Counted from the stretch's first letter, positions 47,330 to 63,281 are shown. The stretch: 64,000 nt of DNA from Candidatus Zixiibacteriota bacterium (GCA_022571985.1 JACZWU010000004.1:64319-128318); one strand, 5' to 3'. Made by a program: numbers and translations. The notes: generated by a model not told the origin, from the letters alone.

Positions 47330-47355
47330 CTGAATTTTTGGCAGGGAAAATGGTA

Positions 47356-47610
47356 CTAACCAATACGGCTGACAACTGCAGCAAATCTGGACTTGTTTCT
47401 ATCGGCATTCTTCTTATGAATAAGGCCGTCAGCTGCCGCCCGGTCAAGAAGACGGGTTACCTGCTTGTAAAGCTTCATAGCTTCGTCTTTGCTGGTCGAC
47501 AGGCGCAATTCTTTTATAACTGCCCGGAGTCGGCTGCGTTTGCCCCGGTTGCGCTCGCGCGCTTTAGCCGAAGTTTTTACCCGCTTAATACAAGATTTAT
47601 GAAGTGGCAC
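47356..47610 (-). CDS. rpsT: 30S ribosomal protein S20
   Basis: KSCIKRVKT...RNRGKRSRLR...LIHKKNADRNKSR. Confidence 0.93.
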   Translation of the reverse strand: MPLHKSCIKRVKTSAKARERNRGKRSRLRAVIKELRLSTSKDEAMKLYKQVTRLLDRAAADGLIHKKNADRNKSRFAAVVSRIG

Positions 47611-47674
47611 TATTTTGTTCCTCTAAACATTTGTTATCTTATTTCGCCCGACAAATCTAATCTTTTATCAAAAA

Positions 47675-49252
47675 TTGTCAACAGTTAATAAAAAAGAGAG
47701 TTCTCTGGCCAAAACTGCCGGTTCCGTATCGGGGGCAACAGCTATATCCCGGGTGCTGGGGCTGGTCCGGGAACAGGTAATGGCTTTCTATTTCGGGGCG
47801 GGTATTGCCACAGACGCTTTTGTGGTGGCTTTCAGGATTCCCAACCTGCTCAGAGATATGTTTGCCGAGGGGGCCTTATCTTCGGCTTTTGTGCCTGTTT
47901 TTAAGCAAAAACTAGTGAAAGAGTCGGAAACTGAGGCCAGAAGCCTGGCAAATATTGTGGCAACTTTGATACTGCTTTTGGTTGGGCTAATTGTGCTGCT
48001 GGGGATAGTAGCGGCTCCGGCAATAGTATATATCTCGGCCAACGGATTTACATCGGATCCCTTAAAATTTGATCTTACAGTCAATCTAACCAGAATTATG
48101 ATGGTTTATCTGCTGCTTGTCTCTTTGTCTTCGCTGACGATGGGGATGTTGAACTCCTACGGAAAATTCGCCATTCCGGCCATCTCTCCGGCTCTTTTCA
48201 ATCTTGGTACAGTCCTGACTGTTCTGGTCTTTCACCGGTTTTTTGAGCAGCCTATTTTTGCACTCGCCATAGGTGTGGTTGTCGGAGGTGTGGCCCAGCT
48301 GGCAATTCAACTTCCGGCGCTTTTTAAAACCGGATACCGGTTTTATCCCAGCCTTAACTTTTTGGACGAAGGCATAAAAAGGATATCCAGGCTTTTTGTG
48401 CCCATGGTAATCGGGCTCTCGGCCGGAAGAGTCAATATTTTGGTCAGCACTCTGCTGGCATCGTTTTTAGCTGAAGGGGCCTTGTCTTACCTGAATTACT
48501 CTTTTCGATTAATGCATTTCCCTTTGGGAGTGTTTGCCGTTGCTCTGGGAACAGTTACCCTGCCAAAGGTTTCTGAACTAGTCGCCAAAAAAGATTTTGA
48601 GAACTTAAACAAGACTTTTCAGCAGGCGATCGGACTAAACTTTTTCATCGTGATACCGTCGGCAGTAGTGCTGGCTTTGATTGCGCCGATGATAATCAAA
48701 TTGATTTATCAATGGGGGGCGTTTGACGAGATTGATACTCTTAAAGTATCGCTGGCATTATTGCACTATTCCTACGGTTTGATAGGATTTGCGGTTGTAA
48801 GAGTTGTAGCTCCTTTCTATTACGCTTTTGGTGATTCCCGCCTGCCCATGCGAGTTTCTATTGTAACAGTTGTAGTCAACTTGCTCTTGTATTATCCCCT
48901 GATTCAGGTGCTGGATTTTGCCGGTCTGGCAGCGGCGACATCGCTGGCTGGACTGCTCAACGCAACTTTGTTACTCGTCTTTTTATCAACCAAGCCGATC
49001 AAAATTGACTGGGGAAAAATTCTACTGAATCTTTTCAGAGTGACCCTGGCGGCAATATTGGCCTTTTATCTGGCCAAGATTACGCACTTCAGCTTTTCAA
49101 TCGAATTAGAAGTCTTAAACAGAGCTGCCGAGCTAACTTCAATTCTTTGTATCGGGGGCGTTGCATATTTTGTTTTCTGCCTTATATTTCAGGTCTCAGA
49201 AGCCGTTAAAATCGGCAAGTGGATCCTGAAAATTATTTTCCGTAAGCAGTAG
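47675..49252 (+). CDS. murJ: Lipid II flippase
   Basis: SRVLGLVRE, DAFVVAFRIPNLLRDMFAEGALSSAFVP, RLMHFPLGVF. Confidence 0.96.
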   Translation: MSTVNKKESSLAKTAGSVSGATAISRVLGLVREQVMAFYFGAGIATDAFVVAFRIPNLLRDMFAEGALSSAFVPVFKQKLVKESETEARSLANIVATLILLLVGLIVLLGIVAAPAIVYISANGFTSDPLKFDLTVNLTRIMMVYLLLVSLSSLTMGMLNSYGKFAIPAISPALFNLGTVLTVLVFHRFFEQPIFALAIGVVVGGVAQLAIQLPALFKTGYRFYPSLNFLDEGIKRISRLFVPMVIGLSAGRVNILVSTLLASFLAEGALSYLNYSFRLMHFPLGVFAVALGTVTLPKVSELVAKKDFENLNKTFQQAIGLNFFIVIPSAVVLALIAPMIIKLIYQWGAFDEIDTLKVSLALLHYSYGLIGFAVVRVVAPFYYAFGDSRLPMRVSIVTVVVNLLLYYPLIQVLDFAGLAAATSLAGLLNATLLLVFLSTKPIKIDWGKILLNLFRVTLAAILAFYLAKITHFSFSIELEVLNRAAELTSILCIGGVAYFVFCLIFQVSEAVKIGKWILKIIFRKQ

Positions 49253-51552
49253 TGCTAAAAAAATACCCTGGTCTTTTTTTTCTGATTCCGGTAGTGGCCG
49301 GAATTCTGTTCACAGACTTTGTCCGTCCTGCGGGCTGGCTCTTGCTGCTGCTTTGTCTGATTTCGTTTGTTGGCGGACTGGTTCTGTTTAAAAAAGAATC
49401 AGCACGCTTTTCGATTATCTTATTTGCTCTTTGCCTCTTTTTTTTCAGCGGTTTTCATTACGGTCTTAAGACCTACAATTTTGGTTCAAATCATATTGCC
49501 AGATTTATTTCGGAGAAGCAGACCTATCAAATATATGGAGAAGTAGCTGACTGGCCGGAGCTTAAGCATAACAGGACCGAAATTACAATTGCCATTGACT
49601 CGCTTGGAAACGGTACAATTTTTCCGGTAAAAGGCGGCATCCTCCTGAAACTATCAAACACAACTACCGCATTACAGCGGGGGGATAAAGTAGAGTTCTG
49701 GGGAACTATATATCCTGTGAAATCTCAGCATGGTCCGGGTGGATTTGACTACAGCAGATACTTGAGGCACAAAGGCATCCATGGCATTGTCTATTTGCCG
49801 ACTCTCTTAAACGTTCGAGTGGGTAAGCCGGGAGCAAGAGGTATTATTGCTTATGTTGATTTACTGCGTGAGGAAATTTCAGAAAGCCTGTCACGAAATC
49901 TTTCGAAAGTTGCCGCCTCGCTCTCGGCCGGTTTTTTGATTGGTGAGACCAGAGAAATTCCGCCTGACGTCTACAGCTGGTTCAGAGATTCGGGAACACT
50001 GCATCTTCTGGCTGTTTCAGGTTCGAATGTGGCTCTGGTGATTTTCTTTTTGATAATAGTTCTTCGTCCTTTAGCTCTGCCCAGAAAGAGACGGGCTGCG
50101 GTCTTAATGGTTTGTGTTGTGCTCTTTGCACTGCTGTCTTATGGGGAACCGTCGGTGGTGCGGGCTTCATTGATGGCTATTTTAATTTTACTGGCAAATG
50201 TTTTTGAGCGCCGCTACAACTTAAATCAGATAATTGCTTCTGCCGCCATGATAATACTTCTGGCGGCGCCGACTCAATTGTTCAGCGTTGGCTTTCAACT
50301 TTCATTTGTGACTGCCTGGGGATTGATATTTGTAACACCCAGAGCGGCCAAATTTTTTGAAGCAGTTAATCATAAAGGCTGGTATCGCTGGCTGCTGCTG
50401 CCGTTTATGATTTCGCTGATTGCTCAGCTATTCTCAATGCCTCTGATCGCACTCTATTTCGGAAAAGTGCCGGCAATTTCTGTGATAGCAAATCTCGTAA
50501 TTATTCCGCTCGTTTCTATCGCAGTCGTAGGTGTGCTGCTACTTCTCCTGCTGGATTTAATACTGCCGATCATGGGTCTGTTTTTCGGTTCGCTTCTCGA
50601 TTCTTTTATGCAATTAGTGCTTTACTTTCTAAGTCTGTTTGGAGAAAAGCAAAGCATTATTATCAATACCGGTGATATTTCGGTGCTGGCCGTAGTTTTA
50701 TTCTATGGTCTGTTGGTACTGGCTGTTTTCTCCTTTAACAGCAAATTGCTTCGGCGGGCCACAGTTTTTGCAACTGCAATAGTCCTGAGTATAGCCCTTC
50801 TTAGCAACTTACTTTCTGCTTCGGTCCGCTCTAATGACTTTTGTACAGTCGATATTTTTAACATACCCGGTGGCACCGCTATTTTGATTTATCAGAATCA
50901 GAGCCAGACGCCAGACCTGATAATCAGCGGCCTGACCAGGAAACCGTACCCAATAGATGAACGAATTTTCAGCTCGGCCTTTGATGATTTAGGGGTGGAG
51001 GGACTCGGCCAGGTTTTTGTGATGTCATCGGAGTATGGTGCTATCGATGATATCTATAGACTCTGTCTCAGCTACCGGGCCAAATCTGTCATGGTAGATG
51101 CCAGGTTAGAAAAGAGCTTTTCGGATATAAGACGGACGCTTTTTGTAAATTACCGCACAGTCAAAATTGAGACATTTCCGGCAGAAAATTCTAAGAAATC
51201 CTTCCCGGGCTATTATCCCTCGAAAAATCTGATTGAGCTTGAACTGAATAATTCATCGATATTGATAGCAAATGAGAATTTTCTGTCAGGTGATAACGAA
51301 GTCTTCTTAGCAAAGCCGTCTCTGGTCATTTATTGCGGCAGAAGTAAGATAGCCCGCTCAGAAATTGAAGAGATTATCGAAAGTCAAAGCAACTTAAAGC
51401 AACTGGTCTGTTCAAGAATTGAGCAAAAGGGCGCTGTTTCTTTACCTGCTGAAAAATACAAGAAAATAGTTACGGATATTGGGCAAATCGGAGGCTGTCG
51501 GATCAAGCTTAAGAACCGAACCGACAGTACTTTCCAAGTCTCTCAGTTTTGA
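49252..51552 (+). CDS. comEC: ComEC/Rec2 family DNA uptake channel
   Basis: N-terminal TMs, OB-like domain with PGGFDYSRYL, core GTLHLLAVSGSNV, PSVVRASLMA, VGFQLSF. Confidence 0.9.
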   Translation: MLKKYPGLFFLIPVVAGILFTDFVRPAGWLLLLLCLISFVGGLVLFKKESARFSIILFALCLFFFSGFHYGLKTYNFGSNHIARFISEKQTYQIYGEVADWPELKHNRTEITIAIDSLGNGTIFPVKGGILLKLSNTTTALQRGDKVEFWGTIYPVKSQHGPGGFDYSRYLRHKGIHGIVYLPTLLNVRVGKPGARGIIAYVDLLREEISESLSRNLSKVAASLSAGFLIGETREIPPDVYSWFRDSGTLHLLAVSGSNVALVIFFLIIVLRPLALPRKRRAAVLMVCVVLFALLSYGEPSVVRASLMAILILLANVFERRYNLNQIIASAAMIILLAAPTQLFSVGFQLSFVTAWGLIFVTPRAAKFFEAVNHKGWYRWLLLPFMISLIAQLFSMPLIALYFGKVPAISVIANLVIIPLVSIAVVGVLLLLLLDLILPIMGLFFGSLLDSFMQLVLYFLSLFGEKQSIIINTGDISVLAVVLFYGLLVLAVFSFNSKLLRRATVFATAIVLSIALLSNLLSASVRSNDFCTVDIFNIPGGTAILIYQNQSQTPDLIISGLTRKPYPIDERIFSSAFDDLGVEGLGQVFVMSSEYGAIDDIYRLCLSYRAKSVMVDARLEKSFSDIRRTLFVNYRTVKIETFPAENSKKSFPGYYPSKNLIELELNNSSILIANENFLSGDNEVFLAKPSLVIYCGRSKIARSEIEEIIESQSNLKQLVCSRIEQKGAVSLPAEKYKKIVTDIGQIGGCRIKLKNRTDSTFQVSQF

Positions 51553-51655
51553 TGATTCTACCTTAAGTTATCCCCTGAAATACCCGATAAATAAAGGGAA
51601 TTGAGCCCTATTAAGGCAACAATCAATTAAATAGGGTCTGTCAGAGGGAAAAAAT

Positions 51656-52861
51656 ATGAGTTTGTCAGGGAATTTAAAAACAGTCTCATTCTCGGACATC
51701 CTGCAGTTATTGTCAACGGGCAAGAAGACAGGAGTTCTGGAAGTAAATACCAGCGCCAGGCAAAAGGAAGTAGCCTTTAAGGGTGGCAACATAATTTATG
51801 CCTCATCACTGAATACTACCGAAGATTTGCTGGGAAATATGCTGCTGCGTAAAGGGAAACTTTCCAAAGATCAGCTGGAGCGCGCTATAACGCTGCACAA
51901 GCAGACCGGCAGACAGCTGGGTACCACACTTGTGGATATGAATCTTTTTGAAAAAGATGAAATCGCTGAGTGTCTGAAATTTCAAATTGAAGAAATAGTC
52001 TATAATTTGTTTTCCTGGCAGGAAGGAAACTTCGTTTTTCACGAAGGCACCAGTCCCAAAAACGCACCTTTCTTAGTAGACCTTACCACCATGAGTATCG
52101 TCATGGAAGGTACCCGCCGTATTGATGAATGGCTGGAAATTCAGAAAGTGCTGCCGCCGGACGAAATGATGCTGTCTGTAGCTGCTTCACCAAAAACAAA
52201 TAGTGATGAAGTCAGACTGACTATGGAAGAATTTCGGGTGCTGTCCATGATAAACGGCGAAAGAACTTTGCCGGAAATGATACAATGTTCACCTTTTGGG
52301 GAGTTTGTAACCTGTCGTGCAGTTTACAAGTTGATATTAGGGAATTTGATAGAAGTCACCGGTAAACGTGAAGAAAGTTCTGAAGAAAAACAGGATGAAG
52401 AAGAAGCGGTTCTGTCTCTAATCTTTTATCTGTTCAGTAACGCTTTTTACAGGATTCGTACGACAGTGGAAGATTTGCTGGGAGAAAACAACACCAGGTT
52501 TTCAAGCTTTGCTTCTCAGTATCGCTCAGGAATTTTGAGTTATTTCCCGGGAGTAGATCCCGGCTCGGAATTGATGCCCTCGCAGGAAAAATTTCTTAGC
52601 GCCGTCAGATCGATTCCTGCACATATCCGGGTGCATGTATTGCTTGGCAGTTTAACCAGCATGCTTACCGAGCAGCTGGAATATGTATTCATGATTTTGG
52701 GCGAAGGTCCTTTCCGGAGCACGCTCAACGGAGTAAAAAGAGAAATATCCGAGCCGCTGGCAAAGAAGCGAGAGTTAGTCAAAAAATATGGAATAGAAAA
52801 CGATTACTATAAGTCCTTAAAAAGGGCCGAAAGAGTAGTTCATATGGTACGAGGTGATTAA
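51656..52861 (+). CDS. DUF4388 (PATAN-like) domain protein with MshEN-like motif
   Basis: SLSGNLKTVSFSDILQLLSTGKKTGVL...IIYASS...LLGNMLL; MEGTRRIDEW. Confidence 0.85.
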   Translation: MSLSGNLKTVSFSDILQLLSTGKKTGVLEVNTSARQKEVAFKGGNIIYASSLNTTEDLLGNMLLRKGKLSKDQLERAITLHKQTGRQLGTTLVDMNLFEKDEIAECLKFQIEEIVYNLFSWQEGNFVFHEGTSPKNAPFLVDLTTMSIVMEGTRRIDEWLEIQKVLPPDEMMLSVAASPKTNSDEVRLTMEEFRVLSMINGERTLPEMIQCSPFGEFVTCRAVYKLILGNLIEVTGKREESSEEKQDEEEAVLSLIFYLFSNAFYRIRTTVEDLLGENNTRFSSFASQYRSGILSYFPGVDPGSELMPSQEKFLSAVRSIPAHIRVHVLLGSLTSMLTEQLEYVFMILGEGPFRSTLNGVKREISEPLAKKRELVKKYGIENDYYKSLKRAERVVHMVRGD

Positions 52862-53225
52862 GATGAAAAAGAGTTTATTTATTGCAATTTTAATTAGTGC
52901 AGCGATGGGCAGTGATGTCCAGGCCGCCAATCTGGCTGTTATAGCCAGTCCGCCGACGATGTTTAATCTGTTCGTATTGATAGTTGCCGGAGCCTGTTTG
53001 TTTGGTTCTTTTCAGGTAATGGGTCAGGTCAAAGGCGGCTATCTGAGCAGGAGCTGGCAGATGTTTTTCCTTGGTTTCGTGCTTCTGGCCATAAGCCAGC
53101 TGGCAAGTATCGCTTCGGCAATGGAGTTTTTCAGTCTGCCGGAGCTGTTTACTCCACTAATGCTGCTATTGATGTCGGGACTTTTTGCGTTTGGAGTTTT
53201 TAGCGCTAGAAAAACGCTAAGCTGA
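52854..53225 (+). CDS. Small hypothetical membrane protein (signal peptide plus about 3 TM)
   Basis: Hydrophobic segments; overlaps the stop of the upstream gene; the start may be ATG 52863. Confidence 0.7.
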   Translation: MIKMKKSLFIAILISAAMGSDVQAANLAVIASPPTMFNLFVLIVAGACLFGSFQVMGQVKGGYLSRSWQMFFLGFVLLAISQLASIASAMEFFSLPELFTPLMLLLMSGLFAFGVFSARKTLS

Positions 53226-53339
53226 GAATATTTTTGTTAGCTGGTTTAAATTATTTTTGGAAAAAAAGTAGGCGCAAGGCAGAATTTTTAATTGCGCAAG
53301 AACTTATGGCAAAACAAGTTACAATGAGCGTTTGTTTTT

Positions 53340-54224
53340 ATGGCGACTGTATCAGAATTAGATGATAGAATAGAGAAGTGTCAGAGAATTTTGGACTCTG
53401 ACCCTAACTCACAGATTTTTGCTGCCTTGGCTGAAGCATATCGCAAAAAGGGAGACCTGGATCTGGCTTTTAAAGTGTGCAAAAACGGATTGAAAGTGCA
53501 TGACAACTACGGCTCTGCTCATGTGGTTATGTCTAAAATAAATCTCGACCGTGGTCAATATGACTGGGCGGAGATTGAAGCCAAACGTGCAGCCGATCTT
53601 GACGGTCGTACCCGTTCAGTTGAACTGTTGCTGTCAGAAATCTACATCTATAAAGGCGAATTTCCGCAGGCCATAAAGCTCTTGAAGGAACTCAGCAACC
53701 GTGACCCTGAAAATCCTCAGATTCAAAAACTGTTGGAGATTGCGCAGAAAATTCCGGAAGAACAAAATGCCTATTTGGACGAGACAATTATTACCGGAGG
53801 TTCATCTGGCAGCAGTCCAGTTTTACCATCTGAAGTTGATGAAACAGAAACTGAAACGAATAAGCCGTTAGAACTGCATGACATTCTTACCGAAGCCCTG
53901 ACAATAAAAGGACTAAAGGGCGCTATGCTTGTCAGCCAGGACGGTCTGGTAGCTGATTATGAATGGAAAAGTTCCCTGGAAGTAAATGACTGCGGGGCTG
54001 TTTTATCGGAAATATGGAAAATGCTTAGCAGCGAACTTGTAAATAACTCTTTTGGCAACGTGCAAAACGTACTTATTGAAGCAGCAGAATCAACTTTTTA
54101 TATAAATCAGAACTCAAAAGGCATTTTCATTTTTGTGGCAGGTAAAAAAGCTAATTTGGGCAACGTTCGCATGAGAATTGACGGACTGATGTCTAATTAT
54201 GCCAAAACAGCAGGTGCTATATGA
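53340..54224 (+). CDS. TPR plus roadblock/LC7 domain protein
   Basis: TPR-like N-terminus (FAALAEAYRKKGDLDLAFKVCKNGL); C-terminal KGAMLVSQDGLV...ANLGNVRMRI. Confidence 0.8.
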   Translation: MATVSELDDRIEKCQRILDSDPNSQIFAALAEAYRKKGDLDLAFKVCKNGLKVHDNYGSAHVVMSKINLDRGQYDWAEIEAKRAADLDGRTRSVELLLSEIYIYKGEFPQAIKLLKELSNRDPENPQIQKLLEIAQKIPEEQNAYLDETIITGGSSGSSPVLPSEVDETETETNKPLELHDILTEALTIKGLKGAMLVSQDGLVADYEWKSSLEVNDCGAVLSEIWKMLSSELVNNSFGNVQNVLIEAAESTFYINQNSKGIFIFVAGKKANLGNVRMRIDGLMSNYAKTAGAI

Positions 54225-55204
54225 ACTTTTCAGGTGAAGCTACAAAACGGCTATTGTTGTATTCGTTAATTCTATTAGTCGTGCCGTTAATATTGTTTCC
54301 GGAAAGACTCGGAACATATCTTCAGGACTATTCTTCGACTAATATCGTCCTGGAACTTCTTTTCTATCTGCTGCTGACTTTCGTGTTATACAGACAGGGA
54401 AACGCCATGCAAATGGTAGCAATCGTCTTTATCGGACTGGGCTACAGATTGCTTATAAGTTCGGTATTTTCAGTGCTGATTTCTGCCTTTTATGATATCA
54501 GCAGCAGCGTAGCCTTTTCTCTGGGGATGTACGGATACTTACCGAGTTTGCTTTTCCAGGTTTTTGCCACCCAGTTTATAATCAAAAGCACTATGGATGA
54601 AATATTTTTCAGTCGATCCCGTATTCGTCGCCCACAGCAGTCAGATACTACCGCCTTTGATTCAGTTGAGACCGGCACCTCGACCTTTGTAGTTACTAAA
54701 GAAAAAAACGCTACCAGACCCGATTCTCCTCCACCCAGGCCGGCTCAGAACCAACCAGGTTTTGAAGACCGATCTGCAGGAGAGTCAACTGTTGTTGGCG
54801 GAGAAGCTCAGGGCTTCGATAAGGCCACCAGATATATTGGTGAACATGGTTCTGTCAAGCTGGCTGCAGTAGTTGACCATGAAGGTCTGCTGTTATCAAA
54901 CTTTACCCGCGGCGGTATAATTGCAGAAGATGTAGCTCCCTTTGCTTTGCTTATAAAAGCAAACGGAGCCGGGAGCATGAACTTTCTCAACTACGGATGT
55001 CCGGAAAGAGTAGAATTTCAGCTAAGTAATGACAGGGTGGTCCTTTGCTATGAAGAGACATATTGTCTTATGGTGATAGCAGAAAGACACAGTGATGATT
55101 TATTAAATATTCGCATAAATCAAGCGATGGAAATGGTCAAGAAATATATGTCCGAGAGGTATGGCAAAATGCTGCACCCGGCAATGGAGAAATCATATGC
55201 ATGA
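54221..55204 (+). CDS. Multi-TM membrane protein with C-terminal roadblock/LC7-like domain
   Basis: About 4 N-terminal hydrophobic helices, P/Q/S-rich linker, then KLAAVVDHEGLLLS...LMVIAE...LLNIRINQA. Confidence 0.7.
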   Translation: MNFSGEATKRLLLYSLILLVVPLILFPERLGTYLQDYSSTNIVLELLFYLLLTFVLYRQGNAMQMVAIVFIGLGYRLLISSVFSVLISAFYDISSSVAFSLGMYGYLPSLLFQVFATQFIIKSTMDEIFFSRSRIRRPQQSDTTAFDSVETGTSTFVVTKEKNATRPDSPPPRPAQNQPGFEDRSAGESTVVGGEAQGFDKATRYIGEHGSVKLAAVVDHEGLLLSNFTRGGIIAEDVAPFALLIKANGAGSMNFLNYGCPERVEFQLSNDRVVLCYEETYCLMVIAERHSDDLLNIRINQAMEMVKKYMSERYGKMLHPAMEKSYA

Positions 55205-55538
55205 AATACTAAGTGAACTGAACAAAACAACCGGCATTACCGGCTCAATGGTGGTCGGCAATGATGGTATTGTTATTGCGGCCAATCTGCAGGAAAATGT
55301 GGAAGACGACACTATCGGAGCCCTGGCGGCATCGATAACCGCCAACATCCATAAATCGCTGGAGCGACTCCAGAGCAGCCCTTTGACACATGTTACCATA
55401 GAAGCTGATGACGCCAAGCTGTTTTTCAGCGACGCCGGACTTGGCATTCTGGTCGTAACTGCAGAGAAAGAAGTGAATATTGGTCTAATTCGACTCGAAA
55501 TCAAGCACGCCATATCACGATTGAAAACGTCAAGTTAG
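55197..55538 (+). CDS. Stand-alone roadblock/LC7 protein (MglB/MglC-like)
   Basis: GITGSMVVGNDGIVIA...LVVTAEKEVNIGLIRLEI; start placed at ATG 55197. Confidence 0.88.
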   Translation: MHEILSELNKTTGITGSMVVGNDGIVIAANLQENVEDDTIGALAASITANIHKSLERLQSSPLTHVTIEADDAKLFFSDAGLGILVVTAEKEVNIGLIRLEIKHAISRLKTSS

Positions 55539-55564
55539 AAACTAAGAATAGTAGGAAGAAGTAA

Positions 55565-56683
55565 ATGGTATCAATAAACTACTCAGCGCGAGAGGTCTGC
55601 TGCAAAATAGTCTATTATGGTCCGGGCTTATCGGGCAAGACTACCAACTTGCAATATGTCCACACCAAAGTGCCCAGCACGACACGCGGAGAACTTATAT
55701 CTCTGGCGACTGAAGCAGACCGGACTCTCTATTTTGATTTCCTGCCAATTAATATTGGTACAATCAATGGATTTCAGGCCAAGTTTCAGCTCTATACTGT
55801 CCCCGGGCAGGTCTACTACAATGCTACCCGTAAATTAGTTTTGCGGGGTGTAGACGGCGTTGTATTTGTAGCAGACAGTCAGCCTGACAAAATGGACGAA
55901 AATATTGAAGCTCTGGCAAACTTGATAGATAACCTCAAAGAATATGGGTACGACGTTAATGAGCTGCCACTGGTGATTCAATATAACAAACGTGACCTTC
56001 CCAATATAATGACAACCGAAGAGATGGATCAAAAGCTTAATACTTATAATTTCCCTACTTTTGAGGCTTCGGCTACTGTGGGAACAGGGGTTTTTGATAC
56101 GCTCAAACTGATTATCAAGCTTGTCCTGGAAAAAGCTAAGAATTCTCAGGGATCAAGCAAATCTTCGAAGCCAGCCGAAGAGGCACCTGCGTCACCTGCG
56201 TCACCAGAGCCAGCCGTACCTCAGGCACCTGCGGCACCAGAGCCGGCTGCACAAGTTGCAGTTCCACCTGCCGCGGAGCCAGGCCCGGACGAGCCTTTGG
56301 CCGATCCTGCGGTTCAACCCTTAGGTAACGATCCCTATGCAGCGCCGCCTGCAGCTTCTCAGGTTCAGGGACAGCCAACAGCCGCAGTTTCAACAGCTGA
56401 TATACCGGTAACATCGGCGACTGACGACAGAATTCCCGCGTATCGTCCTTATCCTGGGGCAAAGCAGGCAGATCCTTCAGCAGGAGGCGATGCTGAAATG
56501 GATGAGAGGCCGTATCCCGGTATGAATCAAAGTGAGAAAACTCTCACAAATAATGACTCAGCCACAGACGAATCGGCCGCCATGGAAAATTCTGGTTCTA
56601 TTACTCCCAGGATGGCGCCTTCACTTAAGCGAAGAGAGCAAAAGAAGCGCAGCTTTTTCAAGAAATTGTTTGGAATAAAATAA
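55565..56683 (+). CDS. mglA: MglA-family small GTPase with long C-terminal extension
   Basis: INYSAREVCCKIVYYGPGLSGKTTN, DRTLYFDFLP, TVPGQ, NKRD, EASA; then about 180 aa P/A-rich tail. Confidence 0.92.
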   Translation: MVSINYSAREVCCKIVYYGPGLSGKTTNLQYVHTKVPSTTRGELISLATEADRTLYFDFLPINIGTINGFQAKFQLYTVPGQVYYNATRKLVLRGVDGVVFVADSQPDKMDENIEALANLIDNLKEYGYDVNELPLVIQYNKRDLPNIMTTEEMDQKLNTYNFPTFEASATVGTGVFDTLKLIIKLVLEKAKNSQGSSKSSKPAEEAPASPASPEPAVPQAPAAPEPAAQVAVPPAAEPGPDEPLADPAVQPLGNDPYAAPPAASQVQGQPTAAVSTADIPVTSATDDRIPAYRPYPGAKQADPSAGGDAEMDERPYPGMNQSEKTLTNNDSATDESAAMENSGSITPRMAPSLKRREQKKRSFFKKLFGIK

Positions 56684-56699
56684 TATATAGGAGGCAGGA

Positions 56700-57191
56700 A
56701 TGTCTGATAGTAACCTGATAATTTACGAAGAAGAAATAAATCAAATTGAAGCTCTGATATCCAAGATGCTTAAAGGAGCAGAGGCAAAGTGCGCCCTGCT
56801 GGTCGATAAAGACGGTCACCTTATTACCCGTCTGGGGTTTACGCACTCTCTTGATACTACCGCACTGGCAGCGCTTCTGGCCGGTTCGTTTGCCTCGACA
56901 AAAGAGATAGCCAGACTGGTCGGTGAACCGGAGTTTTCGGTTCTGTTTCATCAAGGCAAGAAAGACCATATCCACATGTCTATAGTCGGAGATCGTTCTA
57001 TTTTAGTAGTTATTTTTGACGACCGTACAACAATTGGAATGGTCCGCCTTTATGCCAAAGAAACCGCCACTGGCTTGAGTAAGATTTTTGTGGAGATAAC
57101 AGAGAAGTCCGCCTCCGGTCGTAAGAGCGCCGTTGAAGGTGATTTTGTGGAGCGTGCTCAGGAAAAGCTGGACGACATTTTTCAGGACTAA
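56700..57191 (+). CDS. mglB: MglB-type roadblock GTPase-activating protein
   Basis: LIIYEEEINQI...LVDKDGHLI...DTTALAAL...EPEFSVLFHQG...IFDDRTTIGMVRL...DDIF, closely matching Myxococcus MglB as I recall it. Confidence 0.88.
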   Translation: MSDSNLIIYEEEINQIEALISKMLKGAEAKCALLVDKDGHLITRLGFTHSLDTTALAALLAGSFASTKEIARLVGEPEFSVLFHQGKKDHIHMSIVGDRSILVVIFDDRTTIGMVRLYAKETATGLSKIFVEITEKSASGRKSAVEGDFVERAQEKLDDIFQD

Positions 57192-57266
57192 GCACTAACG
57201 CCTAGACAAATAGCACGTAAACTTTTCAACCTGTAATTGGATAGGAGTTAACCACAGGCAATAGGT

Positions 57267-58967
57267 ATGGCTACAGAACTCAGCAACATACTCGTTAAGC
57301 ACGGCAAGATTTCTCAGGAGCAGGCCGACAAAGCGCTAAAGCTGGTCAAAAGCGATAGCGAGAAATTTGAAGTGGCCCTGGTAAAAATTGGCGCTGTTGA
57401 GTCAGAATATGACATAGCGCAGTTTATAGGAAAGCACCTGAAAATTGGTGCCCTTAAGCTTAGTGACATTGAGCTAAATCCTGATATTGTCAAGATGATT
57501 CCGCTTGATATCGCCCGCAAGTTCAAAGTCATAGCAATCTCAAAAATTGGCAAGAACCTTCTGGTCGCAATAGGTGACCCCAATAATGTTTACGTACTGG
57601 ATGCAATAAAATTTATAACAGGCTGCACTGTTCAGCCTGTCATTTCACCTGAAAACGCGATCGAAAAAGCTATCGAATTACAGTATGGAGATACGGGAGC
57701 GCTTTCTGACATTGTGGCCAGCCTTGACGCCGATGATAGTTTGGAAGTAGTCTCGAGTGAGTCGGCTCCTGATGAATCTGACCTGCTTTCTGCAATTCAG
57801 GACAAGCCGCTGGTAAAGCTGGTTGATTCAATAATTGCCGATGCTATTCGAATAGGAGCCTCTGATATTCACCTTGAAACTTATGAAAAGCGAATTCGTG
57901 TGCGCTACCGCGTAGACGGTGATTTACGAGAACTACCGCCATTGCCTTTTAAGTACAGGGCAGCGATTATTTCACGTATTAAAATTATGGCTGAGCTTGA
58001 TATATCCGAACGTCGTCTGCCTCAGGACGGACGTGTAAAAGTCAAAATTTCCGGCAGAACAGTAGACCTGCGGGTGTCGGTGCTGCCTACGATTTTCGGC
58101 GAGAAGGTAGTTATGCGAATCCTGGATCCGATGGCTCTAATGGTAGATATGACCAAGCTCGGATTTAGAACCGAAGATCTCGACAATTTCAGAAGAGCAA
58201 TTCACCTGCCCTATGGCATAATTTTGGTTACCGGACCGACTGGTTCCGGTAAAACTACGACTCTGTATTCGGCCTTAAAATCAATCAATACAGTAGACGT
58301 TAATATCATGACAGCCGAAGACCCGGTTGAGTTTAACTTTGATGGCATCAATCAGGTCGCTGTTAAAGCCGACATAGGTCTGACATTTGCAAATACCCTC
58401 AGGTCGTTTTTGCGACAGGATCCGGATATCATAATGCTCGGAGAAATTCGTGACGGCGAGACAGCAGAAATAGCCATTCGGGCAGCTCTTACCGGTCACC
58501 TTGTTTTTTCCACCTTGCATACTAATGATGCGCCGTCATCTATCAACCGTTTAATGGACATGGATGTGCCTTTTTATCTGGTAGCTTCGGCCACCAAATT
58601 AATACTGGCACAAAGGATGGTCCGAAAAGTCTGCCAAAATTGTAAGATGGAGATTAATCTGACCAAAGATCAAGTAGAAAGTCTCGGCGTACCGTCAGTC
58701 TGCCTGACCAATTTAAGAGCTTTCAAAGGAAAAGGCTGCGATGAGTGCAGTGATACCGGGCAGTCGGGCAGAACAGCTATATTTGAAATCATGCCCATAT
58801 CCCCGGCCATTGAAAAGCTGATTCTTGATAGAGGCACCGATGCTGATATTCAAAAGACTGCCCTGGATGAAGGCATGTACAGCCTGCGCATGTCTGCTAT
58901 TGAGAAGATGAAGCTGGGAATGGTCAGCATCGATGAGGTCTTTGCCACTACGGCGGCTGTAACATAA
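57267..58967 (+). CDS. pilB: Type IV pilus assembly ATPase
   Basis: ASDIHLE, RRLPQDGR, GPTGSGKTTTLY, LRQDPDIIMLGEIRD, STLHTND, CxxC...CxxC. Confidence 0.92.
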   Translation: MATELSNILVKHGKISQEQADKALKLVKSDSEKFEVALVKIGAVESEYDIAQFIGKHLKIGALKLSDIELNPDIVKMIPLDIARKFKVIAISKIGKNLLVAIGDPNNVYVLDAIKFITGCTVQPVISPENAIEKAIELQYGDTGALSDIVASLDADDSLEVVSSESAPDESDLLSAIQDKPLVKLVDSIIADAIRIGASDIHLETYEKRIRVRYRVDGDLRELPPLPFKYRAAIISRIKIMAELDISERRLPQDGRVKVKISGRTVDLRVSVLPTIFGEKVVMRILDPMALMVDMTKLGFRTEDLDNFRRAIHLPYGIILVTGPTGSGKTTTLYSALKSINTVDVNIMTAEDPVEFNFDGINQVAVKADIGLTFANTLRSFLRQDPDIIMLGEIRDGETAEIAIRAALTGHLVFSTLHTNDAPSSINRLMDMDVPFYLVASATKLILAQRMVRKVCQNCKMEINLTKDQVESLGVPSVCLTNLRAFKGKGCDECSDTGQSGRTAIFEIMPISPAIEKLILDRGTDADIQKTALDEGMYSLRMSAIEKMKLGMVSIDEVFATTAAVT

Positions 58968-59097
58968 AAAATACCGCAAGTGTAGGGCATTGTCTCTCAG
59001 CAGCTTATAGCTCTGATTCTACAAATAAAACTTAAGAAACCTCCGCTTTTTACCGATAAATTATAGGTATCCGAAGAGTCTGATAAACCGCTTAAAT

Positions 59098-60195
59098 ATG
59101 GGGAAAACCATGGTAGGTCTGCGTGAACTGCTTGAAGAAATGTTCAAGATGGAAGCTTCTGATTTGCATATTACTGTCGGGGCTCCTCCGGTCGTCCGAG
59201 TTGATGGCAAGCTTCAGCCTCTGAATTATGATCCTTTGACCAGTGAAGATACCAAGAAGATAGCTTATACGATGCTCAACGAAAAACAGAAGCTCAAATT
59301 TGAGCAAAACTCCGAACTGGACTTTTCATTCGGAATTGAGCAGATGAGCAGGTTTCGGGCTAATATGTTTATGCAGCGAGGCAATGTCGCGGTGGTTCTG
59401 CGGCAGATTCCATATGAAGTAAAAACGTTTGAAGAGCTCGGATTGCCAAAAGTAATCGCGGAATTTGCAAATCTTCCCCGCGGCTTGGTACTCATTACCG
59501 GACCCACCGGTTCAGGAAAATCAACATCTTTGGCTTCTGTCATTGACAAAATTAACAGAGAAAGAGCCGTTCATATAATTACTATAGAAGACCCGATTGA
59601 ATACCTGCATCGCCATAAAAAATCTCTGGTCAACCAGCGGGAAGTATATTCTGACACAGCCTCATTCGCCACGGCCTTGAAATATGCTTTGCGCGAAGAC
59701 CCGGATGTAGTTCTGGTGGGTGAAATGAGAGACCTGGAAACAATCGAGTCGGCCTTATCAATTTCAGAGACGGGACACCTTGCCTTTGCTACCTTGCATA
59801 CAAACTCCGCTGCAGAATCGGTAAACAGAATAGTAGATTCTTTTCCCGCAAATCAGCAGGAGCAGGTACGGGTTACTCTGTCGTTCACTCTTCAGGCGGT
59901 AGTATCACAGACACTGATTCCCAAAATTGGCGGCGGACGCGTATTGGCAATGGAAATATTGGTAGTAACGCCTGCGATCCGGGCGCTGATACGTGATGAT
60001 AAGGTTCATCAGCTATATTCTATGATACAGGCCGGACAGAAATACGGCATGAAGACGATGAATCAGTCACTGGCAGAATTATATGAGGCTCATAAAATTA
60101 CCATAAACGATGCAATGGCTCATAGCAGTTCAACTCAGGAGTTGACGGAAATGCTCCAGAAAAGTAAAGTTCAAAGATCTCCTGCATTCAGTTAG
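59098..60195 (+). CDS. pilT: Type IV pilus retraction ATPase
   Basis: ASDLHIT, GPTGSGKST, TIEDPIE, QREV, LREDPD, AIRALIRD. Confidence 0.95.
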   Translation: MGKTMVGLRELLEEMFKMEASDLHITVGAPPVVRVDGKLQPLNYDPLTSEDTKKIAYTMLNEKQKLKFEQNSELDFSFGIEQMSRFRANMFMQRGNVAVVLRQIPYEVKTFEELGLPKVIAEFANLPRGLVLITGPTGSGKSTSLASVIDKINRERAVHIITIEDPIEYLHRHKKSLVNQREVYSDTASFATALKYALREDPDVVLVGEMRDLETIESALSISETGHLAFATLHTNSAAESVNRIVDSFPANQQEQVRVTLSFTLQAVVSQTLIPKIGGGRVLAMEILVVTPAIRALIRDDKVHQLYSMIQAGQKYGMKTMNQSLAELYEAHKITINDAMAHSSSTQELTEMLQKSKVQRSPAFS

Positions 60196-60222
60196 ATGAG
60201 CAGGTTGAAAGAGGCTAATTAA

Positions 60223-61419
60223 ATGGCAGTTTTTGAATACAAAGGAAAGACGTTAGCCGGAGCAGCAGTTCAGGGCTCGCTTAAGGCAAAAAGCAAAGAG
60301 GACCTTGAGCGCGTCTTAAGGCAGAATCGTATACTGGTTACCTCAATAACCAGAAAAGCTCCGGACATAAATATAAAATTCGGAACCGGCATAAGTCGCT
60401 TAGATATATCCCGGTTTACCCGCCAGTTTGCTACTATGATTGGTGCCGGCCTGCCCATGGTCCAGTGTCTTGAAATCATGGCGTCTCAGACTGATAGTAA
60501 AGAACTTGCTAAAGTTATCACACAGGTAAAAGAAGGAGTTCAGGGAGGTGCTACTCTGGCCGATGCCCTGGCGCGCCATCCCAAAGTTTTTGACCAGCTT
60601 TATTCGAATATGGTACAGGCAGGAGAGATCGGTGGTGCACTTGATGCCATTCTTATGCGTTTGGCGGCATATCGCGAAAAGTCTGACCAGCTGATTCGTA
60701 AAGTAAAAGGCGCCATGGTCTATCCGTCCGTTATCGTAGTAGTTGCCGCTGGTGTAACATTCGGTATGTTGACGTTTATCGTTCCTGTTTTTGCTAAGAT
60801 GTTTGGAGGATTAAACGCAGAACTGCCTATGCCTACTCAGTATGTTCTGGCAATTTCGCATTTTTTGCAAGACAACATTCTTTACCTGATAGTCGGTTCG
60901 ATAGGATCTGTTGTCGGTCTTTTGTGGTGGAAGAAAACTCCTACTGGTGCGCTTCTTTTTGATAAGTTCATGCTTATGACGCCAATATTTGGAAACCTGA
61001 TCAGAAAATCTGCGGTGGCAAGGTTTACTCGTACATTGGGAACCCTGCTGTCGTCCGGTGTGTCAATTATTGAAGCAATGGAGATTACTGCTAAAACCGC
61101 AGGTAACGTAGTTATCGCAAATGCGATTAACAAGGCCGTTCTGTCAATCGCCGAAGGTGATACGATTACCGGCCCGCTGAAAGAATCGGGTGTTTTCCCT
61201 CCAATGGTAACTCAGATGATTGCTGTAGGCGAAAAGACAGGTGGCTTAGATGACATGCTCAGCAAAATTGCAGATTTCTATGACGAAGAAGTAGATGAAG
61301 CTGTAACCGCCCTGACCTCTGTAATTGAGCCAATCATTATTGTATTTATGGGTATTGTCATTGGTGGTATTTTGATAGCCATGTATTTGCCAATGTTCGA
61401 CATAATTGGAAAAATCTAA
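60223..61419 (+). CDS. pilC: Type IV pilus platform protein (T2SSF family)
   Basis: FTRQFATMIGAGLP, GEIGGALD, KVKGAMVYP, GEKTGGLDDML, AMYLPMF. Confidence 0.95.
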   Translation: MAVFEYKGKTLAGAAVQGSLKAKSKEDLERVLRQNRILVTSITRKAPDINIKFGTGISRLDISRFTRQFATMIGAGLPMVQCLEIMASQTDSKELAKVITQVKEGVQGGATLADALARHPKVFDQLYSNMVQAGEIGGALDAILMRLAAYREKSDQLIRKVKGAMVYPSVIVVVAAGVTFGMLTFIVPVFAKMFGGLNAELPMPTQYVLAISHFLQDNILYLIVGSIGSVVGLLWWKKTPTGALLFDKFMLMTPIFGNLIRKSAVARFTRTLGTLLSSGVSIIEAMEITAKTAGNVVIANAINKAVLSIAEGDTITGPLKESGVFPPMVTQMIAVGEKTGGLDDMLSKIADFYDEEVDEAVTALTSVIEPIIIVFMGIVIGGILIAMYLPMFDIIGKI

Positions 61420-61460
61420 CGATAAGAAATTGTAGCTGATTTGATAATATACTAAGCAGG

Positions 61461-61486
61461 ACGGCGCCCACCAGGGCGCCGTTGTT
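61461..61486 (+). terminator. GC-rich hairpin between pilC and the kinase gene (terminator-like)
   Basis: ACGGCGCCC-acca-GGGCGCCGT followed by TGTT; weak U-tract. Confidence 0.5.
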
Positions 61487-61490
61487 ATAT

Positions 61491-63218
61491 ATGACAAACA
61501 ATAAACATCTGGAAAGAATTGACTGGTTTTTGCCACTCAGACTGGCATCCTATGTAATTCTGTTTGCGTCGATTGTACTGTGGATGGATTTCCCCGGCTT
61601 TATGCAGGTGCCCATCATTATCTATTCACTCCTGACTTTGGCTGTAGGAGTATCTCTTACTAAAAAATTCAAGCGCAAACTTGTAATGATATCTCCCTGG
61701 GTGGTGGCGCTTCACTTCGTATTTGAAATTGCTTTGGAGTCGGTAGTGGTCTACTCCACCGGCGATATAAGTTCTCCACTTACAGCTATGTTTGTTTTGA
61801 CCATAGCCTCTGCTGCTCTGGTTTACCGACTGGCCGGAACACTTTTGATGGCGACAATTGTTTCTTTGTCTTTGAGCATAATAGTGTGGGTGGTTTATAT
61901 CATAGATGCTCATTTGTCTTTATCATTCCAGGAACTGAGCCGGTTTTTTGCCGGCAAAGAGCGATTGTTCTATGCTATCTTTTTCCATTTTTTGATTTTC
62001 TATCTGGTAGCGTTTATCTCAGGCTATCTGGCTGAAAGAATTAAGTCCGGCGCCAGGCAGCTGGAAGATACTTCAAGAGCGCTTAGAATTGCCAAACTTG
62101 AAACAGACGACATTCTCAGACATCTCAGTTCGGGGCTGATGAGTATCGATGCCAGAGGTGTGATTATATTTTTTAACAGGGCTGCCGAGACGATTACAGG
62201 TTTTAATGAAAAGGATATCAGGGGCAAGGATTGCCATGCTGTTTTTCATAAGAAGATGCCGGAACTCGCCCGATGCCTGAAGGCAGGCATAGACGAAAGA
62301 ATCGAATTTCCCAGAAAGGAATTGCAGATCGAAGTAAGGCCGGGTAATTTTATTCCATTGGGACTGTCAACATCTGTCTTAACAGAATCCGATGGTGAGC
62401 TGCGCGGACTTATTGTGATATTTTCTGACTTGACCGAAGCCAAAGAATTAGAAGACAAGGTCCGCTCGGCAGATAGATTGTCGGCTATAGGCGAACTATC
62501 GGCCTGTATCGCCCATGAAATCAGAAATCCTCTGGCGGCAATTTCCGGCTCAGTAGAAGTAATCAAAAACGAATTGAGTCTGGAGGGCAGTAATCAGAAG
62601 CTGATGGATCTGATAATAAAAGAATCAGATCGCTTAACCAAAATGCTGACAAAATTTCTTCAATATGCCAGCATTGAACGCAGGACATTCAACAAAGTTG
62701 AATTATGTCATCTGACTTCAGAAACAATGGAGATTCTTTACCGGGACGAATCAATACATTCAAATATCAAAGTAAATCTTGAATCAGAAGAGTCCATAGT
62801 ATATGTGATCGGTGACGAAGACCTGATTAAACAAATTTTGATAAATGTGGCGGTTAATGCCTGTCAGGCTTTTGAAGGAAAGCCGGGTGAGATAATTTTC
62901 AAAGTCTCAAACGATACAAAGCAGCAAATCGTAAGATTGGAAGTAACAGATAATGGCCCCGGTATGTCGGCAGAACTAACCAATAAAGTTTTTCAGCCAT
63001 TTTTCTCGACGCGAAAAGGTGGTACAGGCCTGGGATTGGCTATTGTGCACAGATTGGCAGAAGTCCTGGGCATTACTATTTGGATTGAATCAGAAGAAAA
63101 CGTCGGGACTTCGTTTATTCTTGAGTTTAAGACATACTCTCAGCCCGGACTGGCTGATCTGGCCCGGCACACCGGCAAGGATTCCGGCTCTTTTGCCCGG
63201 AAATCTGTCTCCTTTTAG
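61491..63218 (+). CDS. pilS: PilS-like PAS sensor histidine kinase
   Basis: About 6 N-terminal TM, PAS (FFNRAAETITGF), H-box AHEIRNPL, N-box NVAVNACQA, DNGPGM, FFSTRKGGTGLGL; follows pilBTC. Confidence 0.75.
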   Translation: MTNNKHLERIDWFLPLRLASYVILFASIVLWMDFPGFMQVPIIIYSLLTLAVGVSLTKKFKRKLVMISPWVVALHFVFEIALESVVVYSTGDISSPLTAMFVLTIASAALVYRLAGTLLMATIVSLSLSIIVWVVYIIDAHLSLSFQELSRFFAGKERLFYAIFFHFLIFYLVAFISGYLAERIKSGARQLEDTSRALRIAKLETDDILRHLSSGLMSIDARGVIIFFNRAAETITGFNEKDIRGKDCHAVFHKKMPELARCLKAGIDERIEFPRKELQIEVRPGNFIPLGLSTSVLTESDGELRGLIVIFSDLTEAKELEDKVRSADRLSAIGELSACIAHEIRNPLAAISGSVEVIKNELSLEGSNQKLMDLIIKESDRLTKMLTKFLQYASIERRTFNKVELCHLTSETMEILYRDESIHSNIKVNLESEESIVYVIGDEDLIKQILINVAVNACQAFEGKPGEIIFKVSNDTKQQIVRLEVTDNGPGMSAELTNKVFQPFFSTRKGGTGLGLAIVHRLAEVLGITIWIESEENVGTSFILEFKTYSQPGLADLARHTGKDSGSFARKSVSF

Positions 63219-63281
63219 GACTTGTTTTTTCTCTACAGCTGTATAATTTAACAGACTTCAACATGAGAGGTGAGTTTAGTT

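Follow-up and report, generated by a model that had tools for sequence, protein, structure and literature searches.

What does it mean when the genes of a Ras-like polarity switch and those of a type IV pilus motor lie together in a single run? The question is raised by a 64,000-nucleotide stretch of DNA from a Candidatus Zixiibacteriota bacterium (GCA_022571985.1, JACZWU010000004.1:64319-128318). This whole stretch is called the window here, and positions are counted from its first letter. On the plus strand (+), positions 51656-63218 hold eleven co-oriented genes. In order, they encode a PATAN (DUF4388) protein, a small membrane protein (TM3), a fusion of TPR repeats with a roadblock domain (TPR-roadblock), a protein with several transmembrane (TM) helices and a roadblock domain (TM-roadblock), a free roadblock/LC7 protein, MglA, MglB, PilB, PilT, PilC and a PilS-like sensor kinase. 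The initial annotation, made from the sequence alone, had named these genes and described them as tightly spaced. The open reading frame (ORF) listing of the window bears this out, with junctions between an 8-nucleotide (nt) overlap and 130 nt, and every domain call is supported by Pfam and NCBIfam matches, by hhalign, or by AlphaFold2 models with Foldseek searches.

MglA and MglB are the model for a bacterial Ras-like GTPase that sets front-rear polarity. With slightly better than even confidence, we read the run in which they stand here as one operon, or several operons in tandem, conserved in Zixibacteria. We lean to the same small degree towards the idea that its products form a membrane-anchored platform of G-protein and roadblock proteins that would position or gate the pilus motor.

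The first part of this reading is carried by conservation. Loci were taken from three genome scans, with tblastn first and then profile hidden Markov models made from orthologues. The sample holds 109 distinct Zixibacteria-type loci, and counts use the contigs long enough to hold the gene in question. All organisms that carry the cluster in this sample are uncultured and represented by metagenome-assembled genomes (MAGs). A synteny survey had been set beforehand as the test on which the cluster could fail, and it found the cluster kept phylum-wide. The order ComEC-PATAN-TM3-TPR/roadblock-TM/roadblock-roadblock-MglA-MglB-PilB-PilT-PilC-PilS is present in essentially every long-enough locus among the 109. 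All five genes upstream of mglA are there in 83 of 84 loci, pilB follows mglB in 84 of 85, and pilB-pilT-pilC with the kinase gene downstream are found in 69 of 70; ComEC is upstream in 72 of 72. The sole two synteny exceptions, L013 and L162, coincide with runs of N in the scaffolds.

In the G domain, the window's MglA matches the proteins on three Zixibacteria MAG contigs (L001-L003) at 98-99% identity, and the best 80 genome matches to this domain are all Zixibacteria-type MAGs, some with other NCBI labels. The sample as a whole is not just a set of close relatives, because it spans lineages whose G domains are 67-80% identical to a divergent Zixibacteria scan query, and in which the TM-roadblock is ~33% identical to the window protein. 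Many contigs with the full cluster (e.g. L004, L006, L007, L011) are labelled uncultured Ignavibacteriales/Ignavibacteria, Calditrichota, Acidoferrum or Deferrimicrobium. These labels are probably taxonomic mislabels or binning errors.

Junction lengths are conserved as well. The median gap is 120 nt from ComEC to the PATAN gene, 3 nt from there to TM3 (72 loci; in the window the TM3 start overlaps the PATAN stop by 8 nt), 105 nt from TM3 to the TPR-roadblock gene, and 13 nt on to the TM-roadblock gene, whose start in the window overlaps the preceding stop by 4 nt. The TM-roadblock and free roadblock genes overlap in 99% of 107 loci, with a median of -17 nt (8-nt overlap in the window). Next come 28 nt from the free roadblock gene to mglA, 17 nt from mglA to mglB (conserved in 105 loci), 71 nt from mglB to pilB, 147 nt from pilB to pilT, 26 nt from pilT to pilC and 78 nt from pilC to the kinase gene. 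Given that order and junction spacing are conserved across 109 loci, the gene arrangement is not chance. The conserved lengths suggest a division of the run into tightly coupled sub-units: PATAN with TM3, the three roadblock genes with mglA and mglB, pilB by itself, pilT with pilC, and the kinase gene. Since the roadblock genes overlap or nearly abut, translational coupling among them is also suggested.

Signals between the genes are few. Promoter and terminator consensus scans of the locus gave no enrichment over shuffles; 18 terminator-like sites were found, where 11.6 +/- 4.1 were expected. Only one strong hairpin stands out in the terminator scan. It is GC-rich with a 10-base-pair stem and a weak T-tract, lies between pilC and the kinase gene (61460..61483, +), and overlaps the start codon region of the latter. 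It may be a terminator, an attenuator or a translational element. An Rfam scan of 47000-64000 gave no match.

The second part of the reading starts from MglA (55565-56683, +; 372 amino acids (aa)). Its G domain (aa 1-195; 55565..56149, +) aligns with M. xanthus MglA (6hjh) at 274.6 bits and an E-value of 3.9e-81. Group-1 MglA proteins are defined by their P-loop, an intrinsic Arg beside the Thr of G2, TVPGQ in G3 and NKxD in G4 (PMC4316618). The window protein has the P-loop GPGLSGKT, DRT (the Arg-Thr of G2), TVPGQ and NKRD, which places it in group 1 by sequence, and its cognate mglB adjoins, 17 nt downstream.

This MglA is not the usual single domain of ~195 aa, and among its orthologues lengths range from 311 to 476 aa. 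A linker and, after it, a terminal motif make up the extension, with no second folded domain. The linker (56150..56641, +; ~164 aa) is rich in Ala, Pro, Ser, Glu and Asp; among orthologues linkers are unalignable and vary between 130 and 280 residues. The terminal motif, KKRSFFKKLFGIK (56642..56680, +; phylum consensus KKRGFFKRLFGIK), is proposed to be membrane-targeting. The last 13 positions are near-invariant in 79 orthologues, with the consensus KKRGFFKRLFG[ILV]K, and in divergent Zixibacteria lineages the end is still polybasic and aromatic, e.g. KKKFSLFGWLKRLGRK or KKFGLLGMFKK. The tail as such had been seen before and stands; its conserved, likely membrane-targeting end had been missed, and we think that this end is the most informative feature that the follow-up has added.

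The C-terminal membrane-targeting sequence of E. coli MinD is KGFLKRLFGG. The extreme C-terminus of MglA resembles it, with a short polybasic stretch followed by G-F-[FL]-K-R-L-F-G. Unlike in MinD, the motif sits on a Ras-like GTPase by way of a long disordered linker, and a MinD-style nucleotide-dependent dimerisation is not expected to be the trigger for binding.

Judging by its sequence, MglA is probably tethered to the membrane through this tail. The strongest argument is that two different types of anchor occur at the same position of orthologues: in orthologous modules of Planctomycetota-labelled MAGs, MglA ends in a TM helix (~20 loci). Amphipathic or polybasic ends are found in the Planctomycetota-labelled locus L199 too, and in Chitinispirillia-type Fibrobacterota. 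An exhaustive comparison of full-length MglA with 1.84 billion cluster representatives returned 2,402 hits below 1e-30. The best 150 of these are all long (255-717 aa), in a ranking that the low-complexity tail of the query biases toward tailed proteins. Among these 150, at least 42 end in a polybasic/hydrophobic stretch and at least 24 in a TM-like helix, with others ending in a beta-rich segment. No description of such tail classes (amphipathic/polybasic, tail-anchored TM, beta-rich) in MglA-like GTPases was found in the literature searched.

Some further tails were seen along the way. Tailed group-1 MglA-like GTPases are very numerous in metagenomes (representatives P0228-P0377; loci L234-L264). 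In MAGs of the Fibrobacteria class, the MglA tail carries another conserved motif (...DSYPTRRMPLGP...) in the place of the amphipathic end. Myxococcus, Corallococcus and Pyxidicoccus (L265-L278) have an MglA paralogue of 381-396 aa with no adjoining mglB, a conserved end (...FALYVLMQTFVRLNAVGLP...) and a PilS-like kinase gene ~3 kb downstream. This paralogue may be SofG.

The roadblock half of the proposed platform consists of three proteins in addition to MglB. The TPR-roadblock (53340..54224, +; 294 aa) has TPR repeats at ~aa 15-140, a linker, and a roadblock domain at ~aa 183-290. TPR_19 matches with 37 bits and Robl_LC7 with 22.3 bits, just under the cut-off of 23. Its C-terminal half is related to the free roadblock family with an hhalign probability of 97%, and many of its 699 homologues have a precomputed PF03259 hit.

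The TM-roadblock (54221..55204, +; 327 aa) has no Pfam match. Its AlphaFold2 model, from a 47-sequence alignment, shows five N-terminal helices (aa 5-129), a disordered stretch (132-195) and a C-terminal domain (198-318) with a predicted local distance difference test score (pLDDT) of ~90. Against MglB (6hjm), an Asgard roadblock (7yh1) and LAMTOR2 (5x6v_B), this domain reaches a Foldseek probability of 1.0 and a TM-score of ~0.8, and this confirms the earlier claim that the multi-TM protein carries a roadblock. All 107 homologues are Zixibacteria-type; nearly all are ~300-360 aa long, and a few are truncated. In one divergent Zixibacteria lineage, three loci (L120:9172-9654, L121:9208-9654 and L163:9207-9656) encode the soluble roadblock only, at 148-160 aa and with 38 bits for Robl_LC7.

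The free roadblock (55197..55538, +; 113 aa) matches Robl_LC7 with 50.7 bits. Its start is placed at 55197 and not at 55161, because orthologues begin at that Met. The profile of the family finds Asgard roadblocks at 57-67 bits (7yh1 at 67), CvnB5 at 35, LAMTOR2 at 23 and MglB at 20, and M. xanthus MglC (7ct3) at 19 bits with an E-value of 0.014. An assignment as MglC orthologue was rejected on these scores, 19 bits versus 67 for the Asgard roadblock. The protein is without the C-terminal helix of MglB and resembles short archaeal roadblocks.

As an analogy of architecture only, several roadblock proteins and a membrane anchor that organise a small GTPase recall Ragulator-Rag and the actinobacterial conservon (CvnA-D). 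LAMTOR2 is matched by both the TM-roadblock model and the free roadblock profile, and CvnB5 by the latter. The Zixibacteria GTPase, however, is of the MglA type, and its anchors would be a fused multi-helix segment and the tail of the GTPase, whereas the anchor in those systems is lipidated LAMTOR1 or a histidine kinase.

The PATAN protein (51656..52861, +; 401 aa) matches PF14332 with 115 bits against a cut-off of 25, and is ~64-69% identical across Zixibacteria. It contains an N-terminal PATAN domain with a four-helix insertion, a small alpha/beta region (~aa 171-237) and a C-terminal helical bundle (aa 248-399). The AlphaFold2 model has a pLDDT of 76.8, and ~90 in the bundle. Foldseek gave no global PDB match for the protein, and no credible PDB relative for the bundle of 150 residues. 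Cas13a, MukBEF and GATOR1 appeared as low-probability Foldseek hits and were dropped as relatives of the bundle. The Pfam and NCBIfam scans gave no match to a receiver (REC) domain.

The insertion is an MshEN-like module of 24+5+24 residues (aa 58-110; 51827..51985, +), LLGNMLLRKGKLSKDQLERAITLH-KQTGR-QLGTTLVDMNLFEKDEIAECLKFQ. NCBIfam NF053729, the MshE-type cyclic di-GMP (c-di-GMP) motif, matches residues 59-110 with 51 bits (cut-off 38), and the profile of the orthologues matches the N-terminal domains of PilF (6f8l) and MshE (5htl) in the PDB. Local Foldseek alignments of the model with 5htl_B and 8pdk_B span 56 aa at 34% identity and a root-mean-square deviation of 1.7-1.8 A. In sequence and predicted structure, the insertion has the 53 residues, the double motif and the four helices of MshEN.

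The MshEN motif reads RLGxx(L/V/I)(L/V/I)xxG(L/V/I)(L/V/I)xxxxLxxxLxxQ, twice, and in its relaxed form [RKPN]hGxxhhxx[GAS]hhxxxxhxxxhxx[QNKRYWST] (PMC5013675). In the PATAN insertion key positions that contact c-di-GMP are replaced (R by L58, Q by H81, R by Q87 and G by N96), and both motifs fail even the relaxed pattern at position 1 (L58, Q87). The insertion is nearly invariant in the phylum, with these residues fixed. Because four key positions are non-canonical and fixed, canonical binding of c-di-GMP is unlikely for what appears to be an MshEN-fold module; the role of a canonical receptor was rejected on motif residues, and the fold was kept. The module may be a degenerate or a re-purposed receptor. 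It is recognisably that of MshE and PilF (PMC5013675; 5htl, 8pdk), but with its ligand residues replaced, and it is inserted in PATAN instead of standing at the N-terminus of an ATPase. Some DUF4388 proteins have been annotated with a GspE_N domain (bioRxiv 10.1101/2021.06.11.447907).

In Synechocystis, the PATAN domain binds the N-terminal region of PilB1 and the N-terminal domain of PilC, and reaches the membrane through an unknown partner (bioRxiv 10.1101/2021.06.11.447907). The Zixibacteria protein shares its PATAN/DUF4388 domain with the cyanobacterial PATAN-REC regulators PixG, PixE and LsiR. It differs from them in being without REC, in its degenerate MshEN-like insertion and novel C-terminal helical bundle, and in that its gene is coupled to TM3 and the Mgl module, not to a chemotaxis-like operon. 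TM3 itself (52854..53225, +; 123 aa) has a signal-peptide-like N-terminus and three hydrophobic segments, a topology read from the sequence only. It matches no Pfam or NCBIfam family and is ~40% identical across Zixibacteria.

The remaining genes are more conventional. MglB (56700..57191, +; 163 aa) has a roadblock domain (Robl_LC7 50.6 bits) and a C-terminal helix. It aligns with M. xanthus MglB (6izw_B) at 131.5 bits over residues 4-162, i.e. its whole length, and scores 89.7 bits against the Thermus-based NCBIfam equivalog NF052242, under the cut-off of 200. PilB (57267..58967, +; 566 aa) is a type IVa pilus extension ATPase, with 677.1 bits for TIGR02538 versus a cut-off of 675.65, and further matches to T2SSE (446 bits) and MshEN (53.8 bits). 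PilT (59098..60195, +; 365 aa), the retraction ATPase, scores 503.1 bits for TIGR01420 versus 319.1. The platform protein PilC (60223..61419, +; 398 aa) has two T2SSF domains (228 bits). It reaches 498 bits for NF052606, under the equivalog cut-off of 700, and leaves the Myxococcus- and Thermus-specific PilC equivalog cut-offs unreached.

The PilS-like sensor histidine kinase (61482..63218, +; 578 aa) has PAS (50 bits), HisKA (52 bits) and HATPase_c (85 bits) domains, and with 26.7 bits falls just under the cut-off of 27 for 6TM_PilS. No PilR-type response regulator gene follows it. The next ORF, from ~63282 and continuing past the window end, encodes a secreted-looking protein with a PPIC-type peptidyl-prolyl isomerase domain, and there is no sigma-54 activator among the window ORFs scanned.

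How much of this is known from elsewhere? In M. xanthus, the action of MglA-GTP on pili is mediated by SgmX, a TPR protein that localises PilB (PMC7519303). The MglA G domain of the window is about two-thirds identical to that of M. xanthus and has all group-1 catalytic motifs, MglB aligns end to end with its C-terminal helix included, and both systems have an extra roadblock and a TPR protein, linked to PilB/PilT (PMC7519303). The differences are many. The Zixibacteria order is mglA then mglB, versus mglB then mglA, and MglA has the 130-280-aa linker with its conserved membrane-targeting-like end. There are three extra roadblocks, of which one is membrane-anchored, one is TPR-fused, and the free one is not MglC by profile. 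The TPR protein has 294 aa versus 1,060 for SgmX, and the cluster has no RomR/RomX gene.

Bdellovibrio is not known to have an MglB. In Bdellovibrio bacteriovorus, an MglA that works with the TPR partner Bd2492 and with RomR is needed for type IV pilus formation (PMC3983030). Unlike Zixibacteria, Bdellovibrio has no extra roadblocks, no PATAN partner and no pilBTC fusion, and no tailed MglA is described.

PMC4316618 (citing Makarova 2006) and bioRxiv 10.1101/2021.06.11.447907 place PATAN proteins near mglA/mglB. The PATAN-mglA/mglB neighbourhood is thus already published, as is the link from MglA through a TPR protein to PilB. The Zixibacteria system, with its true orthologues of MglA and MglB, would work much as the Myxococcus MglA/MglB/MglC-SgmX network and the cyanobacterial PATAN regulators do. 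It is set apart from them by the order of its genes, the probable tether on its GTPase, how many roadblocks it has and how they are built, the REC-less PATAN protein, and the single run with the motor. The initial annotation knew of no description of such a system, and none of the cluster or of a tethered MglA was found in the literature searched, with partial coverage of journals.

Among the lineages sampled, the junction of the module to pilBTC-pilS was seen in Zixibacteria only. The expanded Mgl/roadblock module itself is not special to this lineage, and other phyla carry it. Zixibacteria filled the lists of homologues for both the TPR-roadblock and the PATAN protein, and for this reason the distribution outside the phylum was taken from scans seeded with non-Zixibacteria tailed MglA. 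The expanded module, meaning the mglA-then-mglB order, a tailed MglA, extra roadblocks, TPR and PATAN, is widespread and patchy.

In Fibrobacteria-class MAGs the run opens with a sigma-54 response regulator and a TPR protein of 718 aa. PATAN is next, then a helical protein of 265 aa whose end is weakly roadblock-like, a roadblock of 156 aa, a free roadblock, tailed MglA and MglB, and PriA comes after them (loci L110-L118 and L122; for example L115:3801-12038). The soluble 156-aa protein and the roadblock domain of the TM-roadblock are homologues (hhalign 95%). A reduced form in Chitinispirillia MAGs has a TPR protein, PATAN, tailed MglA and a long MglB. Planctomycetota-labelled MAGs encode a protein of 1,000-1,300 aa with PATAN, TPR and beta-propeller parts. 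They also have a fusion of TPR and roadblock, in one case with an added FHA domain, as well as a free roadblock, a tail-anchored MglA and MglB. Nitrospinota/Nitrospirae-labelled MAGs have tailed MglA and MglB together with two roadblocks, and one case includes PATAN as well.

The plain mglB-then-mglA order with a short MglA is found in Thermus, Meiothermus, Acidobacteriota, Myxococcota, Deferribacterota, Latescibacterota, Krumholzibacteriota and WOR-3. WOR-3 is an independent case of linkage between Mgl and pilus ATPases, with a minimal mglB-mglA pair: RecR, mglB, short mglA, cinA, two pilB-like genes, pilT, a 694-aa gene and a GGDEF gene. This WOR-3/Hydrothermales cluster is found at loci L123-L125 (e.g. 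L123:5734-16445).

If the run does work as one system, the following mechanism would fit. MglA would cycle between GTP and GDP, and the MglB dimer is predicted from homology and catalytic motifs to be its GTPase-activating protein (GAP). M. xanthus MglA is regarded as cytosolic; here MglA would be held at the inner membrane by its anchor motif, polybasic and hydrophobic, on a flexible linker of 130-280 residues. The three extra roadblocks may pair via their roadblock domains and build a platform on the membrane to which MglB and/or MglA would bind; MglC-MglB stacking in Myxococcus would be one parallel, and eukaryotic Ragulator-Rag another. The effector of MglA-GTP, in the role of SgmX or Bd2492, would be the TPR part. 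The PATAN protein, perhaps held by TM3, may contact the N-terminus of PilB as well as PilC, like cyanobacterial PATAN domains. The output would be control over where or when pilus extension beats retraction, for twitching motility and/or DNA uptake. That this amounts to a self-contained polarity switch, as had been proposed, is something we would infer; the gene cluster has no RomR/RomX-type partner and no PilR.

Several findings weigh against this account. In Pfam and NCBIfam, the TPR part matches generic TPR families only. The lineage of L120, L121 and L163 has a TM-roadblock without the membrane part. The MglA tail of Fibrobacteria-class L110-L117 ends without an amphipathic/polybasic motif. 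The hydrophobic moment of the MglA motif is not above shuffles, and neither is that of the E. coli MinD motif; since this makes the test uninformative, tethering is argued from conservation and from the replacement by a TM helix. Separate promoters could lie in the gaps of 71 nt and 147 nt around pilB. MurJ and ComEC upstream are as fixed in position as the pil genes, which means that synteny outlasts functional units in this phylum, and that adjacency alone is weak evidence. Lastly, in MAGs labelled Fibrobacterota, Planctomycetota and Nitrospinota/Nitrospirae, the regulatory module stands with no pil genes next to it.

The last two points lead to the main rival, in which the expanded Mgl module is a general membrane polarity or signalling device with a non-pilus output (gliding, adhesion, secretion or division-site polarity) and its adjacency to pilBTC is inherited. 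MurJ and ComEC have no obvious functional tie and are equally fixed, one protein encoded in the window has a sorting domain of the type IX secretion system (T9SS), and M. xanthus MglA controls gliding too (PMC7519303). Yet the gap between mglB and pilB is short, and the junction is kept through deep divergence in the phylum; WOR-3 independently sets mglBA beside pilB/pilT; and the pilus motor is among the only outputs that experiments have shown for PATAN domains and for MglA-TPR effectors. We consider this rival unlikely. A still smaller chance is given to a competence pilus, positioned or gated by the Mgl module for transformation together with the ComEC channel. The competence reading stays live because ComEC adjoins in Zixibacteria, directly upstream at all 72 loci with its median gap of 120 nt, and because the WOR-3 mglBA-pilB cluster includes CinA and is preceded by RecR. 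MurJ, however, has no relation to competence and is fixed upstream as well, PilT and a PilS-type kinase are equally typical of motile type IVa pilus systems, and no sequence feature separates DNA uptake from motility. Besides, this would be a sub-case of the pilus reading and not an alternative mechanism. Turning from output to roadblocks, these may be catalytic regulators of MglA or co-factors of MglB (acting as co-GAP, guanine nucleotide exchange factor (GEF) or in the manner of a guanine nucleotide dissociation inhibitor), and not a structural platform. RomY or MglC modulate MglB, roadblock proteins are established as GAP or GEF elements elsewhere (MglB, Ragulator), and here four roadblock genes flank mglA in tight coupling. 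A membrane anchor on one and TPR repeats on another nevertheless fit scaffold or adaptor roles, and the free roadblock is without the MglB-type helix. Catalytic and structural roles can also coexist. A purely catalytic role is improbable to us, if a little less so than a non-pilus output.

The surroundings of the run are mostly unremarkable. MurJ and ComEC lie directly upstream (47675-51552) and are kept in every Zixibacteria locus with room. ComEC (49252..51552, +; Competence domain 197 bits) is context, and need not belong to the system. Its place beside a pilus motor hints at competence, but that of MurJ shows that synteny reaches past functional units. The rest of the 64-kb window has no further pilus, chemosensory or RomR/RomX-like genes, and is housekeeping: SMC, TamB/Omp85, IscS, MnmA, AsmA, subtilase, TopA, XerC-like, HslU and OTCase. 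In a 399-aa protein (11075-12274), a receiver domain at the N-terminus is joined by a long, charged and disordered linker to a short conserved helix at the C-terminus. The protein was tried as RomR, whose gross architecture is alike, and rejected for having generic REC hits only and no specific similarity. The ORF at 3-1493 ends in a T9SS C-terminal sorting domain (Por_Secre_tail), because of which the organism probably has this secretion system. Two ORFs, at 28559-30271 (570 aa) and 45949-46797 (282 aa), match no Pfam family at E <= 1e-5, and the former none at E <= 0.01 either.

Nearly all knowledge of MglA and MglB comes from one organism, whose partners lie scattered in its genome. In Zixibacteria the candidate network of switch, GAP, three roadblocks, TPR and PATAN adaptors, and motor is found in one run, and so offers a small and defined set for reconstitution. 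TM3, with its gene coupled to that of the PATAN protein, is a candidate membrane partner of PATAN domains. The published PATAN-Mgl neighbourhood becomes a piece of a larger conserved module across several phyla. A conserved membrane-targeting end on MglA, with a TM helix in other phyla, would change the picture of the switch. A tethered MglA would stand nearer to the lipid-anchored small GTPases of eukaryotes and to Ragulator-Rag. Only tentatively, and as a doubtful possibility, do we go one step further: a tailed and membrane-anchored MglA, three or four roadblocks with a membrane anchor on one and TPR repeats on another, and a PATAN adaptor may together be an unrecognised, widespread 'Ragulator-like' platform of bacteria, covering at least Zixibacteriota, Fibrobacterota, Planctomycetota and Nitrospinota-labelled lineages, and wired directly to the pilus motor in Zixibacteria. 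If this were true, roadblock-scaffolded membrane tethering of a Ras-like GTPase would be an ancient bacterial design, and not a eukaryotic or archaeal one.

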